Assembly (NCBI GenBank): GCA_036172245.1
Contig: JAYWIR010000054.1
Coordinates: forward strand, 1 to 64,000
Direction: 5' to 3'
Origin: Raillietiella orientalis
Lineage: Eukaryota
Length of the DNA stretch: 64,000 nucleotides
The translations under genes were made by a program, and so were the position numbers. Under the pieces are notes generated by a model. That model had not been told where the DNA came from. It did not search any database and saw nothing but the letters and a program-made list of their open reading frames with translations. Shown here piece by piece: positions 1 to 64,000 of the stretch. Every line of letters starts with the position of its first letter. Positions within the stretch are counted from its first letter, which is position 1.

Positions 1-1605
1 CGACTTCCTGGGGGGTGCCTCCGAGGAGGAGGATCCGCTTCCAGCCCCCAGATCGCACTAACCTGCGGGGGCCTTCTTCGTCGGAGCCGACCTGCGTACG
101 CCCTTGCGCGACAGGGTTTCGCGCTCGGCGAGCGTTGCTGCGAGCTCCTCCGCCGCTTTCTCGAAGGCCGCGTCTTCGCCAGCGGCGACCGTTGCCGCGG
201 GCTGCTCCGCGACCTTATCGAGCGCGGAGTCATCGTTGACGGCGAACGTTGCCGCGGGCTCCTCCGCGACTTTATCGAGGGCGGCGTCCTGGCTATCGGC
301 GCGCGTGTCTCGCGTCTCACCCTCTAAACGTAGAATGGGCTCGTCCCCGCGAGTATTTATCGCGTCCGCATCAGCTGTTCCGCGAACATTGCCGCCGGCG
401 GGCTCGGCAGGAACGGCTAAGCGTTCGAGTGCCACCGAGCATTCGCGGAGCTGCTTTTTTTTTGAAAGCGGCGCCGCTTTTTTCTTGTTGCCGGCAGTTT
501 TCTTCTCCGACTTTTCTTCTGGCATTAATTTCTTTTTTTTTTCCTTTTTGGCCTGAACCAGCTGCCAACCCTCCTCCATTTCCGCGTACACGGGAGCTCT
601 TTTCTCCAACGTCTGTACGGGAGGAAGGGAGGCTGGCAGTTATGAACGGCCGTTTTCGCGAGCTGGTCTTTCTACCAGCTTTCCACGTTTTCCCTGCGCC
701 TTTTTTGCGGCAGGGGGCACCGGGGTGGGGCGCTTGGGGCACACGCGCCGAAAGTGACCCTTTTCGCCGCATAGGTGGCACACAATGTTCGGGCACCTTT
801 TTCGTAGATGCCCTACTGCATTGCAGTAGCCACAAAATTGGCGTTTCCCCACGTACCAGAGGTCAACCGCTTCTTGGCAGACCTCCAGCTTGTGAAGAAG
901 CGCACCACACTCTTTTACTGTGATACGCGCCGCAGCTTGACCTTCGAAAAGGCTATTGTAGCCTTGGAAAATCGTGGACTTCGGCCACAACGCGTGCACT
1001 TCTCCGTGCTTTTGTAGCTGTTCTCGAAATGATGACCTAGTCATTCGACTGGAGATCCCAGTGAGATGGACCACCACCGAGCGGTCCATCGTTATCGGCA
1101 AGATCTTCCAACCATCAACGATCAGCGGGTCGGTGATCAGGTGTCGGGCCAAGGTGATATCCTTGCATACCACCTAGACCCGCTGCCCGCCGCTGAGGAC
1201 GCAGAGGCTGTCCAGATCTTTGTCGAAAATATTGGCGTTCTGCAGCGCCTTCGTAAAGGCGCGTGCAGTTCGCCCATCGAAAAGGTTGCCTACCTTGTAG
1301 ACTAGCAAGGGTTTATATTCCGCTCTCTTGTAGGCTTCCATCTCGGCCATGGCTTCCACGCTAGGCGCGGCCACCATGGCGCTCCATGACCTCGACGTCG
1401 CCGGGGACGATTCCGGGGCGGAAGCCCCTGATCCAGTAGGCTGTGGGGACGAAGAAGCCTCCATCACGCCTACTTCCATCGCGGTGTCCTCTGGCAACGC
1501 TGCCATCGAACTCCGACGATGTGGACGCACAAATCACTCAAGAATCAAAAACACTCGCTTTGCCACGCAGGCGGAGCGAAGGAAAAACACGTTTGCTCTC
1601 CACAG
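1..1605 (-). mobile_element. L1-clade LINE family B2, copy 1 (5' UTR plus disrupted ORF1; runs off the window)
   Basis: Minus-strand ORF pieces 1174-1530, 640-1173 and 58-609 encode CCHC knuckles (CGYCNAVGHLRKRC, CHLCGEKGHFRRVC). Closely matches 26089-27700 in inverted orientation. 5' motif at ~1575-1600. Confidence 0.9.
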
Positions 1606-2447
1606 CGGGGATTCGGCCAAGGGGCTCGCTACGAACGCGCGTATTTGCACGCGCGTCGTCACGAGAGGAACCCCAATGTTTGTCGCCTGGCCGAATACCG
1701 CGCCGGAGCCGAGCGACAAGCCTGGCAATCCGGGTCAGCCAGCATGCTGGATGACATGGGCCGGGAACGTTCGACCCCGTCTGCGGTACGGAATCTCGTG
1801 CGGTGTTTTTATTCCTCCCTTTACGCCAAAACAACACCCGAACATGACGCCTCGCGGCGATTGCTCATGAGTGGTTCCGTGGCGATAGGGGAGGAGGAGA
1901 GAGAAAGCCTCGATGAGCCTTTCACGACCGGTGAAATTCTCGCCGGTATCAAAATGCTCAAGAAACGTGAGGCGTTAGGGGAGGACGCCTTGCCCGCGAA
2001 GTTCTTTCAGAGTTTCGCGAAAGAGCTGGCCCCCCTGGTGCTCCAGTTGACAAGGCGAATCTGAGACGAAGGCGATGTTCCCGCCTCGTTTCGGTCAGCC
2101 AGAGTGAGGCTCCTTCCGAAAGGAGGAGACCTCAGGAAACTTTGCAACTGGCGTTTGATCACGATTATGAACACGGACGGCATGTTGATCGCCGGGCTGT
2201 GGGCGTCGCCATTGAGGCGAGTGTCCAATTGCATAATTAGCCCGGAGAAGACTTACGCTGTTCCCGGATGAAGTATGGAGGACAACCTTTTCTTCGCGAG
2301 CACATGGATTCACGCGCAGCGAAGTAAGAAAGAAGAGAAAGCAAAAATTTGCAACCCTACTTTGAGTCCGCCAGTGGGACAGGGTGGAAACCCGCATGCG
2401 GGAAAGGGGGCCTTAGCGATCGCAGTCGACCTAAATAAGGCATTCGA
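1606..2447 (+). pseudogene. LINE ORF2 fragment (linker to RT KAFD), B/B2-type; host of two insertions
   Basis: Runs from GFGQGAR through EPFTTGEI and EDALPA to AIAVDLNKAFD, with stops. Homologous to 34835-35670. Confidence 0.88.
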
Positions 2448-4798
2448 TTTTCACTTGGATTTCCCCGGGGCGTTTATTGTAAAATAAACATTCATAAAGA
2501 CGCGCAGTGACTGGACCAGTGCTCCAGCCACGCATGAAGAAACACGGAGCCTTCCCGGTCACCGGTTCGCAGACCGGTACGGTCCATCTCGGCAGCAGGG
2601 GGATAAAGGACATATAAAAAAACTAAACAAAAAGAAAAGAAGAGGTGGGAGGGTAGGGGAAGGGATCACTTTTGCTGCTGGGGCCGCATCATCCTTCTCA
2701 GGATGCCGGCAAGCTCTCTCTGCATTTGCGGAACCAAGTGGGGCCATCGCGACGCCCTCCTCAGTAATTGGGAGGCGCACTGGATGGCACCCTTATCGCG
2801 GGGTCCTCCCGTAACCGTGCTCCAAGCGACGACGATCCGCGAAGGCAGCACAGGGTTGCTAACGAGGCCGCAGGCCGAAGGGCGTCGGCAACAAAGAGGG
2901 CTTTTAAGGCGTCCCTGGGGTTGCCGCAGGGGATTCCGATGGACGCGGCAAAGCGTAACCAAAGGAGCCGAAGGGCAACACAATACACAAGGAGGTGGGA
3001 TAGGGAGTCCTGTTCCCCACACCTGACGCAATTGGGGTCTACCGCTCCCCAGATCCAGTGGTGTCGGCGGGCGTTGCAGGGGAGTCCTCAGTGCTGCAAC
3101 AAGAGAGCTGACTCCTCCCATTCTAAGGGGAGGGTGATGGTTTTCATTAGTACCGGGGGCCACTTCAAACGTTCCATGGGAACGTCGAGCAGCGCGCCTC
3201 AGCGAACATGTCCATGGGGAGGCGTACACGGGGTGGAAGCGTTAGTTAGTTGACCCGTCTTCCACTCTCCTATCTTCTTCTCCTTCTCGGAGATTGTAAC
3301 TGTAACCTCCCACTTCGCCTCAACATCGCTGTCCAGATCTTCTATAAGGTAAAGCAGCGCAGCAGCGAGGGGGGTTCTTCCTGCCCACGCTCTCTTCTTT
3401 GGATCCTCCAGGATCTCGCGGTGCGTGCAACTTCTGTAATCCTTAAACAGGAACCTTCGTTCCTGTTGGGAGCGTTGCATGCCGAACAGTCCCCTCGTTC
3501 GAACGGTTTCCTGCAACCAGGCACTACCGTTCAAAGGGCGACAGGTGATCAATCCTGGGTTCTTCCGGTACAGCGCAGCCACCCTCCGTAGCTGGAGTCC
3601 GCATCGGTTGATGCGGCGACGGAGTGCAAGAAACGACGTCAGTCTCGTCTTTCCGGTGGCTTGCTGAAAAAGGAGACGTGCAGGGACGCACCAATAGGTG
3701 CACCACAACTCTGCAACAAGTGCCGACATTCGGAACTTGAGCTGAAGCTCCAGCAGCTCCAGCGTCAGGAGGCCCAGACCACCGTCCCGACAAGGAGCGC
3801 ACAAGTCGTTTAAGCAGACATGGGCTCTCTCGTTGCCACAAAGGGCGATACGGAGGAAGTCCTTTGTCCGCTTTTTAATCCTCTCTGTGGGGAGGGGAAA
3901 AACAACCAGGGGGCGGAAAAAAGGAGCCGCGAACGTGTTCCAAACCGCGGCCCGTTCAGGCAGGAAAAACCTGCCGCCTCGGAACGGTCCGATCGCCGTC
4001 TCTACTTTTTGGAGGCAGCAGGACCACGCTTCCGCAGGGGAGTAGTCCCCCAACGGCACACCAAGGTACTTGAAGTACCTTACCGTGGGATCCCCAAACG
4101 GACCTAGTCCTGCTGCCCTGCCCACGCCGCACCAACTGGCATCACGGACGACTTCGCCCTGTTCACCGTAAGTCCGGTTCCCCGATGCAGCAGGTCGAAG
4201 AACTCCTCGACCGCCGCAGCCGGGGTGGACATAGGAAGCAGCAGCAGAAGGTCCTCCGCGTACGCTGAAACGGCCGGCGTACCTGCACAGTCGTGCTGCA
4301 GGTGCGCCAGAGTTCCCCTGTACGCTCTCAGTACTAACTCAAAGTAGATACTGAAGAGCAAGGGGCTCAGGCTGTCTCCCTGCCGCATCCCACGCCGCAA
4401 CGGCACGCCGTGCACGGTCTGCCCCCTAAAAGAAACGTTGATGAGCGCGTCCCGCCAGCTGGACCGCAGATAGGCCACTAATGAGGCCGGAAAACCCAAG
4501 CGTTCCAGAAGCTCTAGAAGGAGATTCTGGTCGCCGCAATCGAATGCTTTCCGCAAGTCGATTGCGACCGCAAGGGCTCTCTCCCCCACCCGACCATCCG
4601 TCCCTATGCCGGCGCACGCACCGGAATTCTGGCCGCGCACCAAGCTCCTTTTTTGTTGGAGCTTTAGCCAGGTGGAAGCGTGGAACAGGTTCGCCTCCAT
4701 GCTTCGACCGGGAACAGCATATGTCTATTCCGGGCTGATGAAGATGTTGGCAACCCGTCCCAGACGCTCTGCCCAAACCTTAGCGAGCAACGTGGCGT
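2448..4798 (-). mobile_element. LINE family A, copy 2 (RT to 3' end, disrupted)
   Basis: DLRKAFD, GMRQGDSLSPLLF, YAED and YLGVP motifs. 3' UTR and terminal hairpin at 2448-2480. Inverted near-copy of 12390-14743. Confidence 0.92.
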
Positions 4799-4960
4799 GC
4801 GGACGTGTTTTTTCCGCGCTCCTCTGCGCCTGTTGTAAAGCGTTCTTTTTCGTTAGTGTTTGTGTGTGGAGCATTTGCGGTGTCCAATGGCAGAAATGCC
4901 TGAGGACACCGCGATGGAAGTCGCGGGGAAGAGGATTGTTTTTCTCCCCAACCTTTTGAG

Positions 4961-6895
4961 GTGAGGGCAACCGCCCATACGGAGGAGAGGGCAACCGCCC
5001 CCTTGAAAAAGGGGGCAACCGCCTCTTCGGAAACGAAGGCTACCGCCACCTTGAAAAAGGGAGCAACCGTGCTCGTGCAAAAGGCCGCAACCGCCCCCTT
5101 GAAAAAGGGGACAACCACCGCCTTGGAAAAGGGCGCAACCGCATCCTTAAAAAAGGAGGCAACCGCGTCTTTGGATCCTTTTTCGGCAACGACGAAGACC
5201 TATAGCTCCGTGGCTGCAGCGCCATCTCCTGCTGCCTTAGCAGAACAACGGGCCTACCTGAAACAAGGATACAAGCCGTCCTTGATTTACAAGGTAGGAA
5301 ACCTGTTTGTGGGGAACACCGCTCGTAAGTTTGAAAGAGAGTTACAGCGGTTGGATGTCAAAAAGGAAGACCTGGAAGGTCTCTCCGTGATGAGTGCGGG
5401 CCAGCGGGTTGAGCTGACTTGCAAAACTGCAAGTCTGGCACAACGCCTGCTGAACACTCCCATCACTCTGGAAGGCCGAAAGGTCTTCCCTGTAACGGAG
5501 GACCGCTCCATTGTTGCCCACCTTACCGGTGTTACTCTTCGCATGACCAAAGCTGGCGTGCAAGAAGAGTTGCAAAAACATGGTACGGTGCACGCGCTCT
5601 GGACCAAGCCCAACGTCTTCCAGACATACGGAAGACTGTTCAGTGGCATGGCTGCAGCGCGTGTGACCGTCCACGAAAACCGTGGGCTGCCCCACAAACT
5701 CGACGTCGGCAACGAGGTCGTCGACGTCTGGTACGTGGGCAAGCCCAAGTACTGTGGACACTGTGATGCAACAGGGCACCTGAAAACACGGTGCCCTCAC
5801 ATCCAGTGTTTTCACTGCGAAGAGAAGGGCCACCTCCGAAAAGTGTGCCCAAAGCGGGAACCTCCAGCGCCCTCTGCCTTGAAAAAAGGTAAGGGGAAAC
5901 GCTCGGAGAAAACAAGCAAGACCACTGAAGCAAAGGAAAGGCCAAGCAAAAAGCCAGAGTCCGAAAGCTCCCAGCAAACGGCGGTCGAGAAAACTCCCGA
6001 CGACGCTGGTGACAACGAGGACTGGCGGACAGCGAAGCCGAAAAGTAAAAAAAGCCGAAAAACCGAAGAATTCACAGCGGAACGCGCGACAACTTCTCTA
6101 AATAGAAGGCAACGCCGCGCTTTGCTCCGCGAATGTTCGGTTGCTTTGGAGCGAGTGCAGATCCCCGAGACCTCCACCGGGGGAGATATCTGCCGCCTCG
6201 TTGACGCCGGAGCCGCGATCGAGGAAGGCAAACCCTCTGTGCAAACAGAGGGGGAGCCGAGCGACGCGCTCGCCGTGAACGAGGACGCCGCCTTCCAGCA
6301 GGCGGCGGAAGAGCTCGCGGCAGAACTCGCGGAGAGCGAAAACGGCGCGCGAAAGGCCTTGCGAAGGCCGGCCTCGAGCAACGCACCTTTGACAGGTGAC
6401 TATGAACAGGATGCCGGAAGTGCGTCCTCCTCCACGGAGGCGCCTCCGAAGAAGACTGGACGGAAGTCCAAAAATCCAAAGAGGCGCATCCCGACAAAGA
6501 AGGAGGGGGACGCACCGGCAACCGAGGGGGAAGCCAGCAGCGTGGGAACGGAGGGAGGGATTTTCCCACCCTCCGCTACCGAGCAGCTGGCGACCCCCAT
6601 GGAGGAGGGGGATGAGGTGAGTGATTGCCGCCCCCTCCCAACGGTGGAGATAGCCATGGAGGAGGGGGAGCAGACAGCTGACCACCGCTCCCCCCTGCCG
6701 TCCAGCGCAGCCGAAGAATCGGCCCCCATGGAAGAGGGGGAGCAGGTGCGTGAAACCCGCCCCCTTCAACCGTTGCGGTCCGCCGAGGAATCGGCCCCCA
6801 TGGAGGAGGGACAACCGGTGCGCGGTGATCCCGTTCCTCCATCCGTCCCGCCCGACCAGGTGGCGGGAGCCCCATTGCCACTTTCCCAGGAGTAA
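4961..6895 (+). CDS. LINE ORF1 gag-like protein with two CCHC zinc knuckles (family B)
   Basis: 644-aa open frame with CGHCDATGHLKTRC and CFHCEEKGHLRKVC. The probable original ATG (MPEDTAME) at 4896 is out of frame with this ORF. Confidence 0.85.
   Translation: MRATAHTEERATAPLKKGATASSETKATATLKKGATVLVQKAATAPLKKGTTTALEKGATASLKKEATASLDPFSATTKTYSSVAAAPSPAALAEQRAYLKQGYKPSLIYKVGNLFVGNTARKFERELQRLDVKKEDLEGLSVMSAGQRVELTCKTASLAQRLLNTPITLEGRKVFPVTEDRSIVAHLTGVTLRMTKAGVQEELQKHGTVHALWTKPNVFQTYGRLFSGMAAARVTVHENRGLPHKLDVGNEVVDVWYVGKPKYCGHCDATGHLKTRCPHIQCFHCEEKGHLRKVCPKREPPAPSALKKGKGKRSEKTSKTTEAKERPSKKPESESSQQTAVEKTPDDAGDNEDWRTAKPKSKKSRKTEEFTAERATTSLNRRQRRALLRECSVALERVQIPETSTGGDICRLVDAGAAIEEGKPSVQTEGEPSDALAVNEDAAFQQAAEELAAELAESENGARKALRRPASSNAPLTGDYEQDAGSASSSTEAPPKKTGRKSKNPKRRIPTKKEGDAPATEGEASSVGTEGGIFPPSATEQLATPMEEGDEVSDCRPLPTVEIAMEEGEQTADHRSPLPSSAAEESAPMEEGEQVRETRPLQPLRSAEESAPMEEGQPVRGDPVPPSVPPDQVAGAPLPLSQE
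4967..5180 (+). repeat. 24-bp coding minisatellite (ATAPLKKG-like, ~9 units)
   Basis: gcaaccgcccccttgaaaaagggg-type units; peptide ATAHTEER ATAPLKKG ATASSETK ATATLKKG... Confidence 0.85.
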
Positions 6896-7083
6896 CACCT
6901 GGGCTCGCCTGTCGCCGTCGATTACGCGTGGCCTGCTGGAACGTGAACGGGCTGCGCGACGACGGCAACAGACGGGACACGGCCGCCACCCTGCGTGACT
7001 TCGACCTGGCACTCCTGCAGGAGATCCACGTGATCACCGCGGAGAACGCCCAGGAGATCGAAAGGATCGCAGGGGGACGATTG

Positions 7084-9175
7084 ATTGTCACCCGGGTGCG
7101 CCGGGGCGTTTATTATAAACTATCCGGGAACAGGGTTCCCGGACAAAGGGGAAAACAAGAGACGAAGGGGGTAGGATCCCCGACACGCAGGTCGGTGTGC
7201 CAAAAGTCCGGAACGGGAGGGAAGGGACCACAAACACACTACTATATAAAAAAATAAAAGAAAAATATGGAGGGCAGGGGACAGGGGTCTTTGGTAAATC
7301 CGTTCCTTCCTTTCAAAACCGGCGATGGATGCCGGCGATCTCTCTCCTTACGCCCTGTGTCAGATGGGCCCACTGGGCAGCCGACGACATGTTTGCGCTG
7401 GCTAATCCGGTGGGCTGACGAAGGATGGCCAGCTTCTCCAACTCTCGGTGGGCCTTGTCGATGGCGCGGGTGCAACACACGGTTGCAACGACAGCACCCA
7501 ATGACAGGCCGCCTGGCGTGAAGAAGCGGCGCATCAACTCCCTCGCGGTGTCCCCCTGATGCAGGAGAGCTGAGGCCAGCCTCCGCCAGAATCCTAGAAG
7601 GGCACCGCAGTCCAGGAGCAGGTGCGGGAGCGTTTCCACTTCCCCGCACCGCTTACAGTTTGGGGAGACGACTCCCCCGGAAACAAGGTTCGTGCGCTGG
7701 CTGGAGTGAAAACCCCAATGCACCAGCATCATCACATCCTGCTTCCACGAAAGGGGGAACACAGAAGTGTTCAGACACAAGGGAGGAACCACAAGTTCTT
7801 CAAGGGGCACACTCAAGTGTTCGCTCCACCGAAGGAGTCCCTTCGGAACGTGGCGAGGTGTGGCGGCGTCCGCCAGCTCGCAAGTCTTCCAGCCGCCAAT
7901 AGGTCGCGTTGTTCCTGCGATGGTGCAGGCGACCTCCCATCTCGCCGGTTCGCAACTGTCATCTCTTGCCCTGAGGGCTGACAGTGCGTCTTCGAGGGGG
8001 GTGACGGCCAGGCGGGTCCACTTCTCCTGGCTGTTGCACTCCTCATCCAACGTGCAGTACGGGGAGAGGTGAGCGCAACGGAGTTCCAGGAGGGAAACAT
8101 CCTGGTGCTTTGCCCAGCCATGCAACGGTTCCTGCCGCCAGGCTTGAAAGTTCGTTGGGCGGCAGGAGATCCATTCCTGGGCGTCCAGGAGCCGATACAG
8201 CGGTTTCAAGGGGAAACCGAAGCTTCTCGTGGCGCGCTCCGTGTGCGGCCGCAGCGACAGAAGTCCATCGCTGCCTGTGCAGCGCCGCAGAAGCAGGCGC
8301 GCGGGAGCGCACCACGGAGTGGACCAAAGGTTGGCGCACAGGGCCAACATCCGAAGCTGCACCTGCAGCTCGATTCTCTCCAGCGTCAGGATGCCTAAGC
8401 CAGCATCCCGACGCGGAGCCGCTAAGTCTTTGAGGCGGATCCTGGACCTCGCAGGTCCCCACAGAGCGTTCCTCAACAGGCTGTGCGCCTGGAGCTTGGC
8501 CGAGTAGGGGGGCGGGCAAACAAAAACCAGGGGGCGCAAGAGAGGGGCAACGAAGGTGTTCCAAATCGTGGCCCGCTCCGGCAGGACGAGCCTGCCATGG
8601 TGGAACGGGCTCAGGGCATTCAAAGCCTTCCGAAGGCAGTCCGACCACACTTCCATTGGGCTGATGTTCCCCAGCGGAACGCCCAGATATTGCACGGAGG
8701 AAGCGGTCGGGATCTCCAGGCGGATCCAGTCGGACTGCCCCTCCCACGCTGCACCAATAGGTAGCACCACGCTCTTGCTCCGGTTTAAGCTCATGCCCGC
8801 TCCCCGGCGAATCAGCTCGAAGAAGACCTCGAGAATGGACGCAGGGGTTGTCGTGGGTAAAAGGAGAAGGAGGTCGTCAGCATAGGCCGCCACGGACGGC
8901 GTTCCTGGACAAGAGCTCGGCAGGTTCGCCGGCGTCAGCCTGAAAGCCCTCAGCACCAACTCAAAGAAGATCCTGAAGAGCAACGGGCTTAAACTGTTGC
9001 CCTGCCTGATGCCCCGCCGCACCGGCACGCCGTACAAGTGGCATCCGCTTAAAGAAATGGGAATGCGCGCGTTGCGCCAGCAAGCGCGCAAATAGGACAC
9101 GAGGTGCATCGGGAGACCGAGGCGTTCCAGTAGCTCCAGCAGGAGATTCTGATTTACGCAGTCGAACGCCATGTG
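7084..9175 (-). mobile_element. LINE family D, 3' part (RT from AFD to 3' end)
   Basis: ORF 7313-9172 (619 aa) with GIRQGNSLSPLLF, YADD and CKRCGEVETLPHLLLDC. Terminal hairpin at 7084-7114. Confidence 0.93.
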
Positions 9176-9269
9176 CGCTCCAGGGCGGACGTGTTTTCTC
9201 GGTGCTCCTCGTGCCAGGAAGTCTCCCCCAGTGCAAGCGTCGTGTGGTTCGGTGGTCGATCAGGTAGCG

Positions 9270-10945
9270 ATGCCTGACGCGACCACCAGGGATAACCAGG
9301 GGGCAGCGGCAACGCCGCCCCCAGAGGCGATGGAGAGCCAGGGGGCGGCGGCAACGTCACCCCCAGAGGCGATGGAGGTGGGGGCGTCCGCCCCCACAGA
9401 ATCCGTCCCCGCTGCAGCGCGGGCGTGGAGCGCCGTTGTGTCGGCGCCATCGCCTGCAGCCGTGGCGGAATTGTCGGCCTATGTGGAAGAGGGGTACAAC
9501 CCCTCATTGTTCTACAAGGTAGGCAATTTATATCCTTTAGAGAGCGCGCGCGCCTTCTCGAAGGGCATGCGCGCTCTCGATGTGAAAGAGGAGGAGCTTA
9601 GTGCTATGACCATCCGCAGCGGGAGTCAGTACGTTGAGGTCATCTGCAAACATGCAGAGCTGGCCCAACGACGGCTTAAAACCCCCGTTGTGATGGGGAC
9701 GCGAAGGCTCCTCCCCACTACGGCGGACCGCAGCATGGTGGTCCACCTGTTAGGCGTGACCGCGCGAATGCGCAAAGAACAGGTTCGCGCCGCTTTGGAA
9801 CAGTTTGGAACGGTCCACGCGCAGTGGGCGAAAGTTAGTTCTTTCGAGGACTACACGGGGCTGCAACACGGCCTCACTGCTGCGCGCGCGACCGTTCGGG
9901 AGGGCTGCATTCTTCCCCACAAACTGGTGGTCGAAGGCGAAACCGTCGACCTCTGGTATGTGGGGAAGCCGAAATACTGTGGCTTCTGCAATACGTCGGG
10001 CCACCTCAAAAAGAGGTGTCCCAATGTGCAGTGCCAAGTATGCGGCACAATGGGCCACACGAGGGAGGTGTGCTCAAAAGCAGCAGTGCGGGTGGTTTCC
10101 AAGAGAAACCTTAAAAAACGCGCCCGGCTTCTGCAGAAAAGGCTGGCGGCGAAAGCTGCCGCGAAGGCTGTGCCACCCGCGCCCAAGAACCAGGCCGCAC
10201 CCGAGGCCCCGGCGACCAACGTCGAAAAAGTTGAGGGAGCCGGCCAGGAGACTGGGTGGCAAGTGGCAACGGCCAAAAAACCAAAGAAGGAGAGGAGGAT
10301 GGAGAAGAAAATCGCCTACCAACAGAAGAAGAAAGAGCAGGGTAGCGCGATAATTAAAGAGTGCAGCGTCGTTGTCGAACGCGTTCTCGATGTTGCCGAA
10401 CGCTGCCGGAAAAACTCGCCGCTACCGACGACCTCCCCTCTGTTGAAACAGTCAACAGCGAGGGGAGCGAGCCGGCGGCGGCGTCCGTCATCGACACCAC
10501 CATCGATGACGTAGCCTTCGCGCGAGCCGCGGAGGAGCTGGCAGCTTCGTTGCAGCCAGAACCCTCCAAGGCTGGCAAGAAGGCCGTAAGGCGTCCGGCC
10601 TCCCCTCAGGAGTCCCCCACTTCCGACACCGGGGTGGAGGCTGGAAGCGCAGCCTCCGTTTCCACGGCACTGCGCAAGAAGGCTGGACGTAAGTCCACAA
10701 AGCCAAGGAAGCTCGTCTCCCCCGTTGAAGGGGAAGAGATGGCTTCCGCAAGCGAGGGTGCCATCAGCGTGGGAAACTCTCGGGACCCGTCGCCCGAGAG
10801 ACTCCCACGCGCGGACACGGAGGGGATGGAGGGGGTGGAGGCCGAACAGGTGCCTTAGGTGCCTGAGAAGGCCGAAACCCCCATGGACATCCCGCCCGCC
10901 TTGCAAGAGGAGGGCTTTCCCACACCTTAATCTTCCCAGCAGTAA
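9270..10945 (+). pseudogene. ORF1 of A-1 (frameshift near 10400, premature stop)
   Basis: CGFCNTSGHLKKRC and CQVCGTMGHTREVC. Continues in ORF 10361-10858 and ends in a TAATG overlap with ORF2. Confidence 0.85.
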
Positions 10946-14526: not shown

Positions 14527-14743
14527 TCCCTTCCCTTACCCTCCCAACTTTTCTTTTCTTTTTTGTTTTGTTTTTTTGTTTTTCCCCCTTCCCCCTGCTG
14601 CCGTGGTGGACCGCACCGGTCTGCGAACCGGTGACCCGGCAGGCTCTGTTTCTTCGTGCGTGGCTGGAGCAATGGTCCAGCCACCGCACGTCTTTGTAAA
14701 AGTTTATTTTACAATAAACGCCCCGGCGAAATCCGGGTGAAAA

Positions 14744-43810: not shown

Positions 43811-43814
43811 TGGG

Positions 43815-50630: not shown

Positions 50631-51095
50631 TGCCACCCGGATACGCCGGGACGTTTATTAAAAAACATTTCAACGGTCAATACAGAACGTGGTACAAGGC
50701 TCCACTGACGGCCACGGAATGCCGGAACTGCCGGGACACCGGGACGCAGCCCGGTGTGGCTCTCCTCGGCAGTGGAGGGGAATGGGGGAAAGAACAAAAA
50801 TAAAATAAAAGAGAAAAACAAACCACAAAAAAAAAAAGTTTGGAGGGCCGGGAAGGGATCACAGAAAACTGCTAGGAGCGCCCATCCTTTGCAGGATGCC
50901 TTCTAGTTCCATTTTCAGTATTCCTAGATGGGGCCATCGGGTAGCTCTCTGCAGGAAGCGAGAAGCATACTCGATGACATCCCTCACGATGCAGTCTTCA
51001 TTTTCGGCATCACTCCAGGCCGCCACGATACCACGAATGCAGCAAAGTGCTGCCAGGGCTGCGGCTGGACTGAGGGCGTCCCGCACGACCAGCAC
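50631..51095 (-). mobile_element. LINE 3' end (probably family B2)
   Basis: DALSPAAALAALCCIRGIV...RWPHL, a T-rich UTR and hairpin at 50631-50659. Family assignment is inferred from the target site. Confidence 0.8.
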
Positions 51096-51359
51096 GTGCA
51101 GCCATAACGACGGCCAAGCAATCACTGACGTCACAGATCCCCTTCCCCCGTATACTCCAACTCTGGCGGGTGCGCCCGCACCCATCCGACTTACTAAGCC
51201 TTCCACGACGTCGGATCATGCCACAACCTGCACACGTGGACAAGTGCACCTTGTTCCGCATTCCTAAGTCTTCCACGACTGCGGACAAAAACCAGACTCT
51301 ATAATAAAAAAAAACTTCCAACATCGACACAATTTCCAAGGTTTTGCCGAATAAGGTAT

Positions 51360-51481: not shown

Positions 51482-52288
51482 ATGCCATACGGACATTTTT
51501 TATACTGATGCTTCACCCTCTGCAACTACTTGGAAAACGAACTACAACTGATAAAAGACTGGTGCAGACGACACTGCACATTCGCAGTAATCGGAAAAGA
51601 GACGGCAAGCACCGGAACACCACACCTCCAGGGATATTTCCAACTCCGCAATCCGCGGACCTTACCAAGCTTAAAAAGACCACCGTTTGAAAAAGCACAC
51701 CTCGAACGCGCAAAATGTACACCACAGAGCAGCTTACGGTACTGCACGAAAGAGGACCGCGAAGCTTGGACATACGGACTCATTCAACAACAAAAAGAAA
51801 CCAACGATTATCAAGACATGGTAAATATGCTTTTCAAACTTAACCAAACTAATACAGATGACTTTCAGATACTACAACTTATAAAAAATGGAGCAACAGA
51901 ACTGGACATACTAGAGCAACACACAAAATTTTACTCCAAGAACTTCAACTTTGTTAAAGAGTGCTTCAGATTAACAAGAAGCAGACTTCACCCTAACCCA
52001 ATGGCTAACCTACAACTGAGAAACTGGCAGATGGACATCCTTAAAATAATAAGGAGCACACCAGACCCCAGAAAAACACACTGGTTCTACGATCCCGTCG
52101 GAGGAATAGGAAAAACCACCTTCACAAAATTCTTGTACCTCAAAAAATCTGCGATATACATGCACAGCTGCAAGAAGGCCGATGCAGCCCACATTTACCA
52201 TGGAGAGAGGATAATAGTGGTTGATCTCACCTGAGACAACCAAGAAATAGTTCAATACGGATTCATCGAGACTTTGAAAAACGGAAGC
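51482..52288 (+). pseudogene. rep: Endogenous CRESS-DNA virus Rep (HUH endonuclease + SF3 helicase), copy 1
   Basis: Motif I CFTLCNY, motif II TPHLQGY, motif III YCTKE, Walker A GGIGKT, Walker B IVVDL, then ETLKNG. In-frame TGA at 51506 and 52232. 3'-truncated and AT-rich. Confidence 0.92.
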
Positions 52289-52852
52289 CTGAGGAGAACG
52301 AAACCCTAATGGTCATCTCACCCGCCTCGGAAGAGGCGGCTTCCCCCACACCGTCATCTTCCCGGCAGTAATGCCGGGAATCTCCTCCCGTCGTCGTCTG
52401 CGCATCGCCGTATGGAACGTAAACGGCATGACAGACGCCGGCAAGAGAGGAGACATGGCCGCCATTCTAGGATCGTTCGACCTTGCGCTGCTGCAGGAGA
52501 TCCATGTGATTTCTGCAGAACAAGCGCGGGAGATCGAACGCATCTTCGGAGGGCGGCTGTGGTATCAGAGTGGAAAATCGAGAAGTTGTGGTGTCGACTA
52601 CCTGCTTCAGCCCGCACTCGAGGTTGCGGCCCGTGGCGAGCGGTTCGACGATCACGGTCGTGTCGGCCAGCTGACTCTCAGTTGTTCCGACTCGATCGAC
52701 CTGATCGTCACGAACGTTTACGCCCCGAGCGGAGCGGACCTGACGAAGAGGAGGGCCAGGAAAGTATTTTTCCTTGCCGTCCGTCACGACTGGTTGACCG
52801 AGGCAGGCGTGCGGAATGCCCATCTGGTTGCAGGGGATTTCAACGTTCGCCT
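52289..52852 (+). mobile_element. LINE family A, copy 3 (ORF1 tail and endonuclease up to GDFN)
   Basis: TAATG junction at 52369-52373. MPGISSRRRLRIAVWNVNG...HLVAGDFNVRL. Resumes at 58577. Confidence 0.9.
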
Positions 52853-55800
52853 TCATACGAGTCGGACGTGATTTCGTGTCGCTCCGTGGTTCCGCTGTTT
52901 GGTTGTGTTTGTGCATCCCACTGCATATCCGTAAGGATGAGCAGTGAACAACGCAAAGTGGAAGACCTCGGGCCTTTGGTTCAGGAACTTCACGCAGCTG
53001 GAGTGATGGCGACAACGTGTGCGAGCCTCGCGCCACCGGACAGGAGCTTTGCGGACGTGGCTGCTTCTGCAGCCGTACAAGGATGCCTCCCCGACCAGGC
53101 GGAGATGCAAGCCTATGTAGCCCAGGGATACAAGCCTGATCTCCGCTATAACGTAAGTGGGGTAGGTAAGGCTGGGGAGGAGTTCGCGGACGAACTCTAC
53201 CGTGTGGGAGTGCGAGAAGAGGACCTCATAGCACTCATGCCTGTTCCAGCATTGGGCTATGTAAAGGTGCGATGCAAGCAGGCTGCGCTTGTGCAGCGGC
53301 TCCTCCGCACTCCTTTGCCCATCCGCGGAAAGAAAGTTTTTCCTTCCGCGATGGACGAGTCTTTTGTCGTTGTTCTCTCGGACGTAGAGCCGGAGATCAA
53401 CGACAAACAGTTGATGGACGCGTTGGCGAAATTCGCAACCGTTCATGCGGTGTGGAGGAAGGAGAGTTCCTACAGAAAATTTCCTTCCGTACACACAGGA
53501 TTTGCTGCGGTTAGGGTAACCGTTGCTAACCACCGCACGCTGCCTGCCACGCTACAGGTCAACGGCACGGTCGTTCACCTGTGGTTCGTTGGCAAATCTC
53601 GCGCGTGCGAGCAATGCGGCAAAGAAGGGCATCGGGGTAAAGAATGCCCTTCCCCGAAGTGCCGCTACTGTAAGGAGTCCGGGCACCAAATTAGAAAGTG
53701 CCCGGACATAAAGAAAAAAAAGGAGGCTGCTAACCTCCGACGTGCCAAAGAGTGCGCAGAGGAGAAAACAGCATCCTCAAAGAAAAAAAAACAGGCTCGC
53801 GAAAGGCCTAAGATAAAGAAGGCCCGAGCGCGGTCTCAAAGTTGGCTCCCTCAGCATCCAAGCCCCAAAAGGGCAATAGCGCGGCAGGGAAGCCATTTAA
53901 AAAAGGGCGAGAGGGCTCCGCGCGTACCGTTACTGTCCCAATAGCTGATCGCGGAAACGCTACTCGCGAAATGGGATCAGTAAAACCAGTGGCTCCGTGC
54001 GACAAGGCAAAAGGAGGACACGCGAAAGAAAATTGCGTGGTAACCGTCTCCTTGAGCGCTCTGTCCATTTCGGAGGCTTCAGTCGGAAACCTCACGAATG
54101 CGTCCGCAGGTGCGTCGGAAAAAGCCAACGAAAGCAGCGTTGCGTTGCCTCAAAACGCGCAGCAACCAGCTGCATCCTCCCCAACAAGACAGTCGCGGAG
54201 CAATCTCCCGACTGCCGCGGAGGCCGCGCTTTCGCCGCCTTTTGAGGGTGCAGCGAAAGCTGAGCCCCAGGCGGTTGCGGAGGTACGTTCGGAGGCGTCC
54301 CTCACGAAAGTCGAGGAGCGCTCCGCACGAACGGACGGTGGGTGGACGGTTGCAGTGAAAGGGAGAAAAATAAAATCTCCCAAACATTCTCCGCAACCTA
54401 GTTCTAAGAGCCTCTCCAAGGCAAAGAACAGTCGCTCGATGCAGAAGACTCGGGCGAAGGTTCCCTCTGCCGCTGCAAAGGCTACCGCCGCGGTCGCGAA
54501 TGGCGCGACAGTTGCGATCACCAGGGACGATGTCCCGGTGATCGCGAAAAAGGAAGTGTCCGCGGTCCCATTCGCGAGCACCTCCAAACCGACAGAGCAG
54601 GTGAGTCGCGAAGCGCCTGCGCTTCAATCAGACTCCCAAACGGAGTCTAAGATCACCGACGCACTTCGGATCACACGCGCGGAAGCCGTAGCGCGACGGG
54701 CTAAGGCCCTGAGGCGCGCAGCGCAGGCCGCGAAGGAGCGACAGCTCACCCCGGACCGTCAAACGACCCTACCCGGAGACGAGCACTCGAATTCGTGCAG
54801 CACCAGGGAAGACGGTGGCGACCGTGATCTCTAGCCAGCAGTGCTGCTTACCGTCCGCTCGCCGGTGAAAGCGGGCAAAAAGCCGCCAACTTCCCAGCAT
54901 TCATGCGGGGAATCGCTTCTTCTCGTCGCCTGTCCGTCGCGTGTTGTAACGTGAACGGACTGCAGAACGACGAAAAGAGGCCATTGGTAGTTAACGCCCT
55001 GCACTCCTTTGACCTCGCGCTCCTGCAGGAGATTCACGTAATCTCCGACGAGCAGGCTGCGAAATCGAAGAGCGCGCAGGCGGAACGCTACTTTGGCGGT
55101 GCGGCGACCCACACACGTGCAACTTCGCGATCCTCGTAGGAGGAAAAATGGCGGAAGCGGTACGTGGCGTTCGCTTTGATGACTGCGGACGGGTGGGCCA
55201 GCTTGTTGTCAAGCGGTCCGAGTCCTTCGATCTCGTCGTTAAGAACATCTACGCGCCTACTGGCTCACATCTTCCTCGATGAAAACCTGCACCCTCGTGT
55301 GGGAAGAAGAGGAAGATTGTCGTCCGCTCTCTCTGACCATCACAGGTTGGAGTTCGAGCTCCTTTCGTCAGGCAAGGGGCCTCCGTTAAAGAACTGGAGA
55401 ATGCCAGCGGATTGGCTTAGCCATCCGGAGGCGGTGGATCATCTCCGTTAGCACCTCCGGACCTTTGTCATCCGCGAACTCGCGGACTGGGATCATTTAA
55501 AGAGTTCAGTCCGCAAGTTCTGTGAACGGTTTCCCTTGCACCGGCTTCCGCGAGGCTTTGGACAAGGGGTCGCCAACAGCAGGACTTTCCTGCAGGCGCG
55601 CACCTTTTCGAGACGCGCGGATGTCAGCCGGCTTGCGGAATACAGAGCGAGAGCCGAGCGCCAGGTCTGGCAGGCAGAAGCATCTTCCCTGCTCGATGAA
55701 AAAGGCCTGGAATGCTCGGCACCAGCCGGTATTCGCCGCATAATAAAAAGTTATTACTCCTCGCTATACGCGGAAGCACCAACGGAAATTATCCTTTTGG

Positions 55801-58576
55801 AGATACTGCTTTCCCAGGTTGCTGCCGTAGTTAGCGAAGAGGAACGCTCACGTCTCGACGAGTCCTTCACGGAGGAGGAAATTTCCTCCGCAACAGCGAA
55901 GCTCCAGAGACGAAAAGCGCCAGGCGAGGATGGGCTGCCTGCGGAGTTTTATCAGTGCTTCGCGGGGGAGCTCGTCCCCCTGGTGCATCGCCTCTAGTCG
56001 CTGATGAGGGTTTCGAGGGATGTCCCCAACTCCTTCCGCTCAGCGAGGGTGCGTCTCCTTCCGAAAGGTGGAGACGCACGCCATTTAAACAACTGTCGTC
56101 CGGTCACTTTGGTGAACTCGGACGTCAAGTTGTCCTCCAAGATGTGGGTTGCGCGCCTAGGGAGAATCGCGCCATCCTTGGTGAGCCCGGAGCAGACTCG
56201 CTGTTCCCGGGTGATCCATGGACGCGAACCTCCTGTTTGCACGCATCCGGATGCAGCTGCAGGAGCGCGTAGCGCAGCAAAGTCGATCCGTGACAAATGC
56301 CACTGCTAAACGCACACGGTATCGACAGAAGCGGCAAGAGAGTACGCCGGGTGCCTTGGCGGTTGCAGTCGACCTCCACAAGGCGTTCGATTGCGTAAAC
56401 CAAGCACTCCTATTGGAGCTCTTGGAACGCCTAGGTCTCGCTGCTCAACTCCTCAAGTACTTGCGCGCATGCTGGCGCCACGCACTAACTTCCATTTGTT
56501 TAAGCGGCTGCCACGTGTACGGTATTCCCGTGCGCAGGGGCATCAGGCAGGGTGACAGTTTAAGCCCGTTGCTCTTCCGCATCTTCTTCTAGTTGGTGCT
56601 AAGGGCGTACAGGCTGACGCTGGAGTACCTGCCTTGCTCTTGCCCGGGAACGCCTGCCGTGGCTGCCCATGCAGATGACCTGCTTCTTCTGCTCCCCATG
56701 TCCATCTGGGCGTCCAGTGTGGAAGACGTCTTAGACCTGGTTCGTCCTGAGCGGGCGTGAGCGTGAACAGAGAGAAGAGCGTGGTCGTTCATGTGGGTGC
56801 GTCGTGGGAGGGGCAGTCCGACTGGATCCGCCTGGGAATCCCCACAGCGGGGTACTTCAAGTACCTTGGCGTTCCGTTGGGCGACCTCGGCGCTGCCGAG
56901 GCGTGGTCGGACTGCCTTCATAAGGCCGAATTGGCCGCCAGCCCGTTCATTAACGGCAAGTTCACCTTGCCGGAACAAGCGGCTATTTGGAACACCTTCG
57001 TGGCCCCCCTCCTCCGACCCCTCTTTTTTGTCTTGGACCCCCCCTATGCGGCCAAAGAGCGGGCAAAACGCCTGCTAAGGAACGCTCTCTGGGGTCCGGC
57101 GCGATCCAGGATCCGCCTAAAAGACCTCACTGCTCCACGTCGGGATGCTGGGCTTGGCATCCTTACGATGGAGAGAATCGGACTGCAAGTGCAGTTCCGG
57201 ATGCTCGCACTTTGTGCCGCGCTATGGACTTCCCCCTGTGTGCGCCTGCGCGCATCCTCCTGAGGAGGTGTGCAGGCAGTGAAGGATTACTTTCTTTGGT
57301 GCCTGGCTTGCGCCACAGGAAACAGGGATTTGGCTATCCTTTGAGGAAAATCGCCACCCTATTGGAAGCCAGTACGTGGATTACCTGCCGCCCAATGAAC
57401 TATAATGCTTGGAAGCAGGAAACCATTGATTCGTGGGCTGCATTCTTAGGGATGAGCCGTGAAGATCTTCGCCCCCTGCGTCAATTCCAGCCTTGGTCAC
57501 TCCAACATGTCATGCAGGACGAGGTGAAGCTTTCCTCCTTGGCCGCCACCCCCCTTGCCGAAGCACTGTCTGCCCTCGAGGCTCGAGATGACAGTAGCCA
57601 GCCGGCAAGGTGGGAGTTCTCCTGCACCATTGCAGGAAGAACAAAACCAGTTGGCAAATGGACCACGAGCGAGCTTGCGGATGCCGACACTCCTCGTGCT
57701 ACACCAAAGGGATTTCTTCGGTGGGGAGAAGCTCTTGGTGTTGCCCCCGAAGAACTTATAGTCCCTCCCTGGTGTTTGGACGGTTCGGTGTTTCCCCTTG
57801 CATAGAAGCAAGACGTTTTGCTTTTCTTGCACTGGGGATTGCGCTACAACGAACGGCGCCACCGAGTTTCCGGTGGGGTGGCTTCTAACCTACTGTGCCC
57901 GGTGCGGAGCTACAGAGTCGTTCCCGCACCTTGTTATGGACTGCGGTGCCCTCCAGGAACTCTGGAGGAGGCTAGGAGCAGCTCTCCCGTCACCAGGAGA
58001 CACCGCTCGAGAAGTGCTGCGACGGTTCTTCCAGACACAAGGACTTTCGATGGCTGCGACGATTTCCACTGTTGGTTGCATCCGGGCCATCGTCACGGTC
58101 CGAGACGTGCTGGAGAATACTGGACAGCAATGTTGTGTCACCAGGAAGGCAGCTGACTTCATCAGGTCGGCAGCTGGGTGGCGACACATATATGAAGACA
58201 CAACGGAGGAGTTGACCGGTATCCATCGCTGGATCAGCAACGGCTTAGAACGACGAAATCGGTGATCCGCCCTCATTTTATTTTTGATTGGTTTTTTTGT
58301 TCTCGCGTCCTTTTCCCTTTACGTTCCGCAGTCCTTTTGGTGGTAGAACTTTTGAGTTTCCCGGTGAGTGCGGAGCAATACTAAAGTTCCCTGCCCACTC
58401 CTCCCATTTACAATTTTTTTTTTTTTTGGACTCCCCTCAGTCGTCCATGTTCTTCCGTTTTCCTGGCCTGCGTGCCAGGGGTGAATCTCCGCTGCATGTT
58501 TTCAGAGTCGAGAGCTAGAAACAATTGTTTCCAGCTCGTTTATGTCAATAAACGTCCCGGCGTGACCGGGTGAAAA
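52853..58576 (+). mobile_element. Full-length degenerate LINE family H, copy 2, with 16-bp TSD
   Basis: atttcaacgttcgcct at 52837-52852 and 58577-58592. ORF1 from ATG 52937 (CEQCGKEGHRGKEC). ORF2 ~54903-58265. Hairpin at 58547-58576. Confidence 0.94.
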
Positions 58577-60700
58577 ATTTCAACGTTCGCCTGAAACCGA
58601 TTGGGCCGAATCACGAGCGGCACCTGGTCAACGAGGTGTGCATGGCGATGCAAACCTGTAATTTGTTGGCCAGTGCACCGGGGATGGAAGACAGCATCGA
58701 CCACGTGTTTCTAGAAGAGCACCTGTGCCCTCTCGTGGGCAGCAGCAGCAAGTTACCGTGCGAGCTGACCGACCATCGCCTGATAGTTCTCGAGATCCAT
58801 CCGCCCGACAGGGGCCCCCCCTCGTCAACGTGTCGTCTCCCAGGGGACTGGCTGAAGCTCCCAGACGCGGCGGAACATCTCCGCACGTTCATACGGAGCT
58901 TCAGGACGCAGACACTCCAGGATTGGGACCGCTTCAAACGGTCGGTCCAGTAGTTCTGCGACCAGTTCCCTCTGCACCACCTACCTACGGGTTTTGGGAC
59001 CGGGGTCCGTAACGAACGAGCCTACCTGCTGGCTCGCCGTTACGCCAGGAGCCCCGACATCTGCAGGCCGGCGGATTACATAGCGGGAGACGAGAGGCAA
59101 GCCTGACAGTCATGATCGGCCAGCTTGTTGGACGATCAGGGCCAGCAGCATTCGTCACCCGCTCAGATCCGCGGTCTGCTGCGGCGTTTTTACTTCTCCC
59201 TGTAAGCAAGAATGCCTCTTGAGCGGGATTTTTCACGACTCCTGCTTCCCGAAGGCGCTCCTGCGATCGGGGAGGAGAGAAAGACTCTCGACGAGCCTTA
59301 AACGATGGGCGAGATCATCTCGGCCATCGGAAAGCTCAAGAGGCGCAAGGCTCCAGGGGAGGACGGCCTGTCCGCAGAGTTTTATCAAACTTTCGATGCT
59401 GAGCTTATCCCCCTGGTACATCAACTCACCTTGCTGACACGCGACACAGGTGACGTTCCCGTTCCCGAAGAGTTCTCCCAATGCGTTAAGGTCCTTGTGC
59501 TCAGCAACGTCGTTAGAACAGAAACGTTGAGTTCATTAGTTCATAGTACCCCAGCTTGGCTTTTTCGGGCTCCAAGGTCTATGAAAAAGACAATCCACGC
59601 AAATGTTGATACCCGTTCCATAACCGTAGTATTCCCACCCTGACTTTGCATCAATAGACGCATTTCTTTGCGCTATGATGGTAAATCAACATCCTGGGAC
59701 TCTGTTTAGCAGCAGGATTTAATGCGAATCCAATACGCTAATTGAAATGATTAGTATGTGCACTCGGTTTGTAATAAATGCTTGATCAGACCAAAACAAA
59801 GTGAATGAAATAGTGATTCCAGACGGCATGTTGCCAGCAAAGTTATGGACAGCGCGGCTGGGACCGGTTTGCTAACGCCTTCATCAGCTTGGAGCAAACA
59901 TATGCTGTTTCCGGGAAAAGCATGGAGGCCAACCCATGCCACGCTTCCAGCTGGCTAGAGCTCCAACAAGGAATTTGATGCGCAGCCAGGATTCCGGTAC
60001 TTCCGTAGTAACGGGTCGTATGGTCGGGTGGGGGGGACCCCTTGTAGTCGCAGTCGACTTGCACAAAGCATTCGACTGTGTCGACCTGAATCTACTGCTG
60101 AAACTTCTGGAACGCTTGGGATTCCTGTCCACATTAGTGCCCTATCTGCGCTCCAGCTGGCGCGAAGCGCTCATCAACATTTCTTTCAGCGGGCAGACCG
60201 TGCACGGCGTGCCGGTGCGGCGTGGGATACGGCAGGGAGACGGCCTGAGCCCCTTGCTCTTCAGCGCCTATTTCGAACTGGTGCTGAGAGCGTACAGTGA
60301 GACTCGGCCGCACCTTCCGCGCGATTGTCCAGGTTCTCCTATGGTGTCAGCATACGCGGACGACTTTCTGCTGCTCCCCATGTCCACCTCGGTTTCGCCG
60401 CTCGAGTTCTTCGACCTGCTTAGTCGGGGAACCGGGCTTACGGTTAACATGGCGAAGTCGTCCGTGATGCCAGTCAGAGCGGCGTGAGCCGGGCAGCAAG
60501 ACTGGGTCTGTTTGGGGATCCCTTCGGTGAGGTACTTCAAGTACCTTGGTGTGCCGTTGGGGGATTATCTTCCTGCGGAAGCGTGGTTCGGCTGCCTCCA
60601 GAAGTCACAGACGGCGACCAACCCGTTCCAAGACGACAGGTTTTTCCGGCAGGAACGTGCCACGGTGTGGAACGCGTATTAGGCCCCCTCCTTCGCCCCT
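58577..60700 (+). mobile_element. Continuation of A-3 ORF2, interrupted by a foreign insert at ~59461-59830
   Basis: FNVRLKP...IDHVFL, PGEDG, DLHKAFD, YADD. Ends at APLLRPL. Confidence 0.88.
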
Positions 60701-63497: not shown

Positions 63498-63499
63498 CT

Positions 63500-64000
63500 T
63501 TGGCCGGAAATAGCCGACCCCGACTAAATTGTTGCATTGGAGGCGTTCGCCATCATGCACGCATTGTGGAGGCGCGTGAACCCCTTAAGAAGGTTCCGCG
63601 CCTCTTGCGGACTCGCCACCGCGCGCGTCACCATGGACAACAGGAGTCTGCTGCCTTCGCAGATCCTCCTTGGTGACGACGTCGTGTTTCTCCGGTTTGC
63701 CCGACAAACCCCGGTTTGCGCCAACTGCGTCAAGGAGGGCCACCGTCCGCGGAAGTGCCCCACACGCAGTTGCCGATACTGCAAACTGCTCCGCCACTCG
63801 ATCAACGAGTGCGTCGAGCTGAAGCGTAAAAGGCGGGCGAGAAACCTCCAGGCAACATCGCCGTCCGCGCCGACTCCATCCGCCCCATCCTCGGGCAAGA
63901 AATCCGGCGCGAACGGGGATCTGCAGCGCAGACGCAAAAAGTCCGATTGCACGAGCGTATCTGGGAGCAATGCTCCACAAAAGCCGGCGCAAAAGCACAA
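63500..64000 (+). mobile_element. Family D ORF1 (upstream part at ~62517-62630), split by Rep copy 2
   Basis: WEVHCKD...PSALDHG before Rep. PEIAD...SCGLATARVTMD...CANCVKEGHRPRKC after it. Confidence 0.85.

Follow-up and report, generated by a model that had tools for sequence, protein, structure and literature searches.

Among the site-specific and self-nesting long interspersed nuclear elements (LINEs) described so far, the systems closest to the one treated here are the LINEs of the Tx1 group which target other transposable elements and the Zepp elements which nest in themselves. Within the Tx1 group, Tx1L inserts into Tx1D, Tx1-Mar into Mariner-N4_AMi and Tx1-9_AMi into Harbinger, and Tx1-8_Crp and Tx1-4_AMi target long terminal repeat elements; Tx1-Mar uses two positions of Mariner-N4_AMi with fixed orientations (PMC4494074). 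In a further paper 'transposons' are named among the listed LINE targets (PMC5035012). Zepp of Chlorella and Coccomyxa and ZeppL of Chlamydomonas are L1 elements which nest in their own copies (PMC8226300; bioRxiv 10.1101/2025.03.28.645958), and the R1, R2, TRAS/SART and Utopia elements are specific for rRNA genes, telomeric repeats and snRNA genes (PMC1919474, PMC5035012, PMC4640811, PMC7265360). In this work we describe a stretch of 64,000 nucleotides from Raillietiella orientalis (contig JAYWIR010000054.1, positions 1 to 64,000 of the forward strand; in the following "the window"), which is nearly all LINE DNA and forms a deep nest of elements of one L1-like clade. At least four families of this clade of L1-type LINEs with an apurinic/apyrimidinic endonuclease (APE) are probably sequence-specific for about 9-15 bp inside the second open reading frame (ORF2) of related LINEs. 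Targeting of the coding DNA of sibling LINEs is very likely family-specific, precise to the nucleotide and fixed in orientation.

A preliminary description, made from the letters of this DNA, had claimed that element ends repeatedly abut the same ORF2 codons in hosts of different families, with one fixed orientation per invader. Once the junctions had been located by an ORF2 profile map and exact junction read-outs, this claim held, since four ORF2 sites take seven of the eleven 3' termini and seven of the nine well-defined 5' termini, and each site receives a single invader family in a single orientation. The 3' termini at these sites belong to family A (two, KAFD codons), H (two, GDFN), D (two, GGRL) and B (one, GFGD/GFGE); the 5' termini are those of A copy 2, both H copies, both B2 copies and two D starts. 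The two H insertions are full length and lie in sense at GA/TTTCAA (GDFN; the slash marks the junction), copy 1 in a B2-family host with an 8-bp target-site duplication (TSD) TTTCAATC at 28508-28515 and 34423-34430, copy 2 in an A-family host with a 15-bp TSD TTTCAACGTTCGCCT at 52838-52852 and 58578-58592. Family A is inserted antisense directly after TTCGA (..GC(A/G)TTCGA, KAFD), its 3' junctions at 2447/2448 in host K1 and at 14743/14744 in D copy 1 falling on the same nucleotide; A copy 2 is flanked by the 9-bp TSD TCGAACGCC at 9162-9170 and 14744-14752. Four antisense D junctions lie at GGRL (3' at 7083/7084, 5' at 43550/43551, 3' at 45323/45324 and 5' at 45336/45337), the two 3' ones after the Leu codon, and represent three different host sequences. 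All these H, A and D junctions had been claimed and were recovered. Of the three antisense junctions ascribed to B2 at GFGE, the two B2 5' junctions (1608/1609 and 26085/26086, directly before GGATTCGGC) stand, while the third, an antisense 3' junction at 50633/50634 after GGTTTCGGCGATGC (GFGD), is that of element B and counts only if B and B2 are one family. Element E has, as described, a single site, both ends of its one antisense insertion lying at about codon 262 with a 2-nt TSD; the G 5' end likewise marks a single site, at about codon 480 of A copy 1. Less well-defined 5' starts lie near 48010 (J), 60720 and 61956. By our own arithmetic estimate, the odds of a repeat hit on the same nucleotide and strand of an element of about 6 kb are near 1 in 10^4 for each family, so that chance is excluded for the repeated sites.

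That the repeated junctions might be duplicates of one insertion (INDEPENDENCE) had been set beforehand as the refutation of the idea; it was checked, and the junctions do not behave as duplicates. BLAST alignments cross two junction pairs (1-2307 against 27689-25387, and 1957-4801 against 15231-12389), and in both of them identity falls exactly at the junction. In the B2 pair the bins of the invader are 89.5-96% alike and those of the host 64-70%; in the A pair the values are 81.5-95.5% and 65-66%, with 74% in the bin which spans the junction. A comparison over 300 nt gave 89% for the D copies, 93% for the B2 copies and 66% for the B2 hosts. The H copies are divergent subfamilies (untranslated regions (UTRs) 69-73% and protein 77-78% alike), and identity alone therefore cannot separate H invaders from hosts; here independence is seen in the hosts, B2-family in one case and A-family in the other, and in the TSDs of 8 and 15 bp. 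The host sequences of D at GGRL are GGGGGACGATTG, GGGAGGCCGGCTA and GGAGGAGGGCGGC. As TSDs are present at A copy 2, H copy 1 and H copy 2, these are real DNA insertions and not RNA-level chimeras. With invader copies 85-96% and their hosts 64-73% alike overall, and both TSDs and host motifs different, the data support the view that the repeated junctions are independent events and not segmental duplicates of one ancestral junction.

The sites appear to be recognised as nucleotides and not as protein motifs. The word GATTTCAA is present four times in the window, each time at GDFN, and two of the four are occupied; four further GDFN sites written with other codons, including H's own GACTTCAA, are all empty. 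GGWTTCGGCSA likewise occurs four times, always at GFGE, with three sites occupied and the fourth being B2's own copy, and none of seven GFGE sites with other codons has been used. TTCGA is found 133 times in the window and both A insertions are nonetheless at KAFD; GGCRTTCGA also occurs once outside KAFD (47963), where it is empty. Overall occupancy in the nest is 3/11 for GGRL, 2/8 for GDFN, 3/11 for GFGE and 2/12 for KAFD. The targets had been described as the most conserved DNA of the clade, which proved right for two of the sites. Over 3460 windows of 15 nt in a codon alignment of eight family representatives (mean pairwise identity 0.62), KAFD lies at the 97-99th and GDFN at the 84-97th percentile of conservation, but GGRL only at the 56-73rd and GFGE at the 13-47th. 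Synonymous differences are present beside the nick sites of H and A in these families' own copies: H itself carries GAC where both H targets have GAT, and A carries AAA..GAT where its targets carry AAG/AGG..GA(C). Self-immunity as an explanation was rejected, since B2's own copy holds a perfect B2 target and the counts are too small (2/4 versus 0/4; 2/5 versus 0/7).

All families share a common 3' end, composed of AATAAAYGYCCCGG, a family-specific loop of 5-6 nt, CCGGGTG and then 0-6 A-rich nucleotides. With up to two mismatches AATAAAYGYCCCGG is found eleven times in the window, against 1.06 expected from shuffles, and the CCCGG/CCGGG hairpin is present in all eleven 3' termini; as this 5-bp hairpin is invariant, covariation gives evidence neither for nor against it. 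None of the eleven termini carries a long poly(A) after CCGGGTG. The shared 5' start is GCGGACGTG, most elements beginning with GCGGACGTGYTTTT and D with ATTGTTCGGACGTGC. Extra nucleotides stand between target and GCGGACGTG in A copy 2 (14 nt, 9171-9184), H copy 1 (4 nt, 28516-28519) and H copy 2 (9 nt, 52853-52861). The same 12 extra nucleotides, CCGYTGTGGAGA, are present in both B2 copies (1597-1608 and 26086-26097) and may be the true B2 5' end. Termini of the D copy 1 type form a 5-nt inverted repeat, 5' ATTGT... and ...ACAAT 3' (7084-7088 and 43546-43550); the 3' end of D copy 2 reads ...ACAAAAA instead. A metagenome scan for the 3' motif returned eight loci, seven of them the same locus with a hairpin and a T run and one unrelated; none was LINE-like, and they were discarded as chance matches.

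The nest is at least six levels deep within 1-36497 and is composed of the following pieces.

1..1608 (-): B2 copy 1, ORF1 and 5' UTR; its 5' end CCGCTGTGGAGAGCAAACGTG adjoins K1 directly before GGATTCGGC
1609..2447 (+): host K1, ORF2 codons 291-570; B2 copy 1 interrupts it at GFG, A copy 1 at KAFD
2448..4798 (-): A copy 1, 3' end ...CCAAGTGAAAA, split at about codon 480 by the G 5' end
4799..7083 (+): G, start GCGGACGTG, ORF1 and ORF2 codons 2-65; cut by the D 3' end after GGRL, at the end of ..GGGGGACGATTG
7084..9170 (-): D copy 1, 3' portion up to KAFD, resuming at 14744-15659 and 21194-23148
9171..14743 (+): A copy 2, a full-length antisense insertion into D copy 1 at KAFD, TSD-flanked
15660..21193 (+): E, a full-length antisense insertion into D copy 1 at about codon 262, single event in the window
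23149..26085 (-): F7 (F family), ORF2 codons 291-1185; 3' end adjoins D copy 1 ORF1 in sense, cut at GFG by B2 copy 2
26086..28515 (+): B2 copy 2, 5' part (5' end, ORF1, ORF2 to GDFN), resuming at 34423-36497 with codons 146-845
28516..34422 (+): H copy 1, a full-length sense insertion into B2 copy 2 at GDFN
36498..40700 (+): F1, 5'-truncated in ORF1, intact ORF2 at 36875-40432; behind it the 3' part recurs as a 475-bp repeat at 40701-41186
41177..42897 (after the F1 repeat): F1'', codons 495-1076
42898..43550 (-): D 5' part, start ATTGTTCGGACGTGC, ORF1 N-terminus; 5' end adjoins an A-family fragment at GGRL
43551..43810 (+): A-family piece of ORF2 (codons 60-143) in which the D 5' junction lies
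43809..45323 (+): D copy 2, from codon 757 to the 3' end ..GGGTGACAAAAA
45324..45336 (-): 13-bp host remnant GCCGCCCTCCTCC (antisense GGGR), with the 3' end of D copy 2 on one side and the next D 5' start on the other
45337..45365 (+): D 5' start, followed by about 2 kb of no recognisable content
47447..47986: ORF2 fragment upstream of J
48010..50633 (+): J, ORF1 and ORF2 codons 1-296, cut by B at the end of GGTTTCGGCGATGC; 5' boundary approximate
50634..51116 (-): B, 3' end with no A tail, ORF2 codons 1108-1185, adjoining J
52287..52852 (+): A copy 3, 5'-truncated, up to GDFN, resuming at 58578 to about 60720
52853..58577 (+): H copy 2, a full-length sense insertion into A copy 3 at GDFN
beyond about 60720: more ORF1-bearing pieces

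Some of these pieces show features of their own. The 3' 475 bp of F1 are tandemly repeated at 95% identity (40225-41186), and the intact ORF2 together with this repeat suggests recent activity of the F family, although F has no single target site. In D copy 1 (21740-22000, minus strand) ORF2 passes from codon 17 directly to about codon 91 (MRGLASSCRVRVACWNV followed by CFDEEGRVGQ); codons 18-90 are gone, and with them GGRL, the target of the D elements themselves. At 45337-47446 (plus strand), downstream of a 27-nt D-type start, ATTGTTCGGACGTGCATACTTACGCTC, about 2 kb show neither ORF1/ORF2 similarity nor a clear reading frame; this may be a non-autonomous element with D termini or the result of a deletion. 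Two fragments of a circovirus-like Rep gene, in DNA of lower G+C, are found inside the nest (51530-52286 and 62928-63527, plus strand). The former matches Pfam Viral_Rep (2.7e-10); the latter has no Pfam match but shares ..VQYGF.E.LKNG.. with it. Each is directly followed by a 5'-truncated LINE on the same strand, the former by A copy 3 (from 52287) and the latter by a D-like ORF1 piece (from about 63492), and these joins could be LINE insertions into an endogenous viral element or chimeras produced by template switching of the reverse transcriptase.

The G+C content of the window is 56-63% over most of its length. About 75 ORF2 segments are present on both strands, as detected with a profile built from ORF2 pieces, and pieces of ORF1 lie between them. 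The only intact ORF2 of the window (P0001, F family; 36875-40432, plus strand, 1185 aa) matches Exo_endo_phos (1.4e-16) and RVT_1 (1.3e-22) in Pfam, and zf-RVT at 23.8 bits, below the cut-off of 27.5; its top PDB match is the human L1 ORF2p (2.1e-46), R2 proteins following at about 1e-14. The ORF2 architecture of the clade, an N-terminal APE endonuclease, a reverse transcriptase and a zinc finger in a C-terminal Cys-His region, is that of APE-type LINEs of the L1 superfamily. Two CCHC knuckles are present in the ORF1 translations, and a Pfam search of three ORF1s gave no match. Relatives outside the window are distant, a homologue search having returned 168 matches, of which the top one is 28% identical. 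In a tree of twelve window ORF2 pieces (codons 291-1000) and the best five of 120 listed outside matches, four rows of which were less than half filled, the window pieces form a single clade (100/100) relative to the outside sequences; within it D is sister to H and E to A, while F, B2 and K1 stand separate. Between families the endonuclease domains are 41-71% identical. The ESM Atlas returned generic reverse transcriptase and APE clusters only, and tRNA and Rfam scans gave no matches.

Words sampled from the window were present at a fraction of 0.45 in one DNA sequencing run and next to absent from two others, and no RNA run was listed as containing them. From that run 627 contigs, mostly of 300-450 bp, aligned to 7001-27000 at 82% likeness, 324 of them being less than 90% alike. 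The joints listed in these contigs connect homologous ORF2 positions across families, which makes them cross-family alignments and not junctions of an invader with its site. Among the ends listed, two contigs stop at the D terminus (7088) and carry different letters ahead of it, where consensus agreement is 0.72 and the letters are not readable as GGRL.

The junctions show part of the mechanism of insertion. The first-strand nick falls on one fixed nucleotide per family: on the coding strand of the host for A (TTCGA^, KAFD), for D (after CGNYTN, GGRL) and for B/B2 (GGWTTCGGCGA.GC^), and on the opposite strand for H, with TTGAAA^TC on the nicked strand. The second-strand cut is variable, 8-15 bp away, which gives rise to the TSDs. 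TSDs of 9, 8 and 15 bp (A copy 2, H copy 1 and H copy 2) and several 5'-truncated copies agree with target-primed reverse transcription. The nicked DNA would prime reverse transcription of an RNA which ends just past AATAAA, the 5-bp hairpin and CCGGGTG, this block presumably being a stringent signal for recognition by the reverse transcriptase at the 3' end; reverse transcription may start within the first few A of a poly(A), so that only few A would be copied. The site would be set by the APE endonuclease domain, as in Tx1L, R1 and TRAS. Each new full-length copy should offer new sites to other families, and nests could in this way feed themselves. Targets had been called renewable, and two D elements flanking a 13-bp host remnant bear this out; such a D-13 bp-D tandem is the pattern expected from re-insertion into a duplicated target, and tandem insertions which sandwich a TSD are reported for SINEU-3 and Tx1-Mar (PMC4494074). 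As a full-length insertion brings all four sites and the duplication restores the one used, LINE-only nests would accumulate.

Several observations weigh against sequence-specific targeting of sibling ORF2s by at least four families. Independent events number only two to three per family, all in one 64-kb nest, and E and G contribute one event each. The one-family label for B and B2 is an assumption, as the two have no overlapping sequence in the window. The F 3' ends lie at three different places, in D ORF1 (F7), at codon 1118 and at codon 495 (F1 and its repeat). Since the core motifs given above were derived from occupied sites, only the rarity of empty matches is informative in their counts. 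Where A copy 3, D copy 2, B and the D-like ORF1 piece (63492 on) are truncated at the 5' end, they adjoin Rep-like or other non-target DNA. The endonuclease, and not RNA-DNA pairing, is only the putative determinant of the site. The D element split at 23148 and 42898 has ORF1 halves which join with neither gap nor overlap (..LSCG/IATACVTM) across 19.7 kb of nested elements, and its 3' end lies in G and its 5' end in an A-family fragment, the GGRL codons of which differ at 5 of 12 nt. Neither the 3' part of B2 copy 2 nor the 5' part of F7 is present, and F1'' lies in opposite orientation beside the D 5' part. Different hosts on the two sides of one D and the missing B2 and F7 parts mean that the nest is rearranged or partly misassembled; recombination between copies, deletions associated with insertion or assembly errors would each explain some of the misfits, and the D halves in different host families point to recombination between D copies or to a problem of assembly. 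Twin priming or a simple inversion was considered for F7 and F1'' around the D ORF1 split and rejected, as the two F pieces overlap in ORF2 coordinates.

Four other explanations can be set beside targeting of sibling LINEs. The families could be specific for words of about 10 bp wherever these occur, with no dedication to LINEs and no selected partition, ORF2 being simply the commonest carrier. In a window almost wholly made of LINEs only LINE hosts are visible, GGRL and GFGE are not especially conserved, susceptibility tracks the exact codons and not the protein motif, and truncated A and D-like copies stand beside Rep-like DNA. Nevertheless, the seven 3' junctions that are informative for A, H, D and B all fall in ORF2 motifs, the GGCRTTCGA outside KAFD is empty, and four sister families using four sites of one gene would be an odd coincidence if there were no link to LINEs; we hold this explanation to be unlikely, though it is the most serious of the four. 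The site could also be set by pairing of target DNA with read-through or terminal RNA of the invader and not by the endonuclease, as might be read from F1 and its 3' repeat, which end in ..GAAAACGTGG(CC) and overlap the host GTGGCCGCTTCC at codon 495 as if target letters had been carried along, and from the ambiguity of 1-4 nt at junctions (e.g. ATTG/ATTG for D). Against this, the A, H and D tails are merely A-rich over 4-7 nt and have no complementarity to the nicked strand, the H site is constant although the H UTRs are so divergent, and specificity determined by the endonuclease is described as the established rule for APE-type site-specific LINEs (PMC4494074), so that pairing is an improbable determinant.

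Copying of single ancestral insertions by segmental duplication, gene conversion or composite retrotransposition would account for the alignments which continue over two junction pairs, but it fails to account for the drop from 89-96% in the invader to 64-70% in the host exactly at the junction, for the different lengths of the H TSDs and for the three different D hosts, and hardly any weight is left to it. Generic nesting in LINE-rich chromatin or copies, with the breakpoints as fragile or structural hot spots for any family, fits a LINE-only nest resembling the described Zepp/ZeppL clusters (PMC8226300), and fits the insertion elsewhere of F, E, G, J and the two 5' ends near 60720 and 61956; shared hot spots would, however, show mixed families, whereas each of the four sites has one family, one orientation and one nucleotide, which makes this explanation very unlikely. 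Family-specific targeting of sibling LINE coding DNA remains the preferred reading. That the partition of sites was shaped by selection, is exclusive genome-wide and serves to inactivate competitors is no more than plausible. More tentatively, and with less than even likelihood, the families may form a co-evolving guild, in which the endonucleases of sister families diverged (to 45-70% identity) to read different words of 10-15 bp in each other's ORF2, hosts evade insertion through synonymous codon changes, invaders protect copies of their own family likewise, and mutual targeting builds LINE-only islands of the Zepp or centromere type.

Should the pattern hold genome-wide, it would provide a sequence-level mechanism for the origin and renewal of LINE-only nests, which are known from the Zepp/ZeppL clusters, some of them centromeric; parasite-on-parasite targeting could explain how such islands build up. 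Each selfish element would then find a safe harbour in the most constrained coding DNA of the others, with an arms race at synonymous sites as the consequence. The families would in addition represent a natural series of related APE endonucleases with different specificities of 10-15 bp, useful for working out rules of DNA reading and for the design of tools for targeted insertion.

With the known systems the locus has single traits in common and differs in their combination. Zepp and ZeppL resemble it in being L1-type LINEs which enter existing copies and form LINE-only clusters, and nested insertion into existing LINE copies is found in the window to a depth of at least six levels. In Zepp, however, one family is described as inserting into itself and forming tandem arrays of 3' ends, no nucleotide site being defined in the descriptions cited, whereas in the window several families cross-target defined nucleotide sites. 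The 3' tail of Zepp and ZeppL is poly(A), in distinction to the few A-rich nucleotides at the eleven termini seen here. R1, R2, TRAS/SART and Utopia have in common with the window families a precise first nick, a fixed orientation and a multicopy 'safe' target which is restored by duplication; their targets are host genes or simple repeats, those in the window other selfish elements. A full-text search of the literature, to which most subscription journals are external, returned no report of sister LINE families each targeting a distinct coding site of their siblings. The Tx1 group has an APE endonuclease and reverse transcriptase of the L1 superfamily like the window families, uses a fixed position and orientation in another repeat, forms tandem insertions around a TSD and includes related families at different positions of the same target. 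Sequence-specific insertion into a repeated target, a trait of the Tx1 clade, is found for four families of the window, the comparison with that clade being one of traits. Unlike in the Tx1 group, the targets in the window are protein-coding sites of sibling LINEs of the same clade, including codons of catalytic motifs (GDFN of the endonuclease and KAFD of the reverse transcriptase), and at least four sister families use four sites of one gene.

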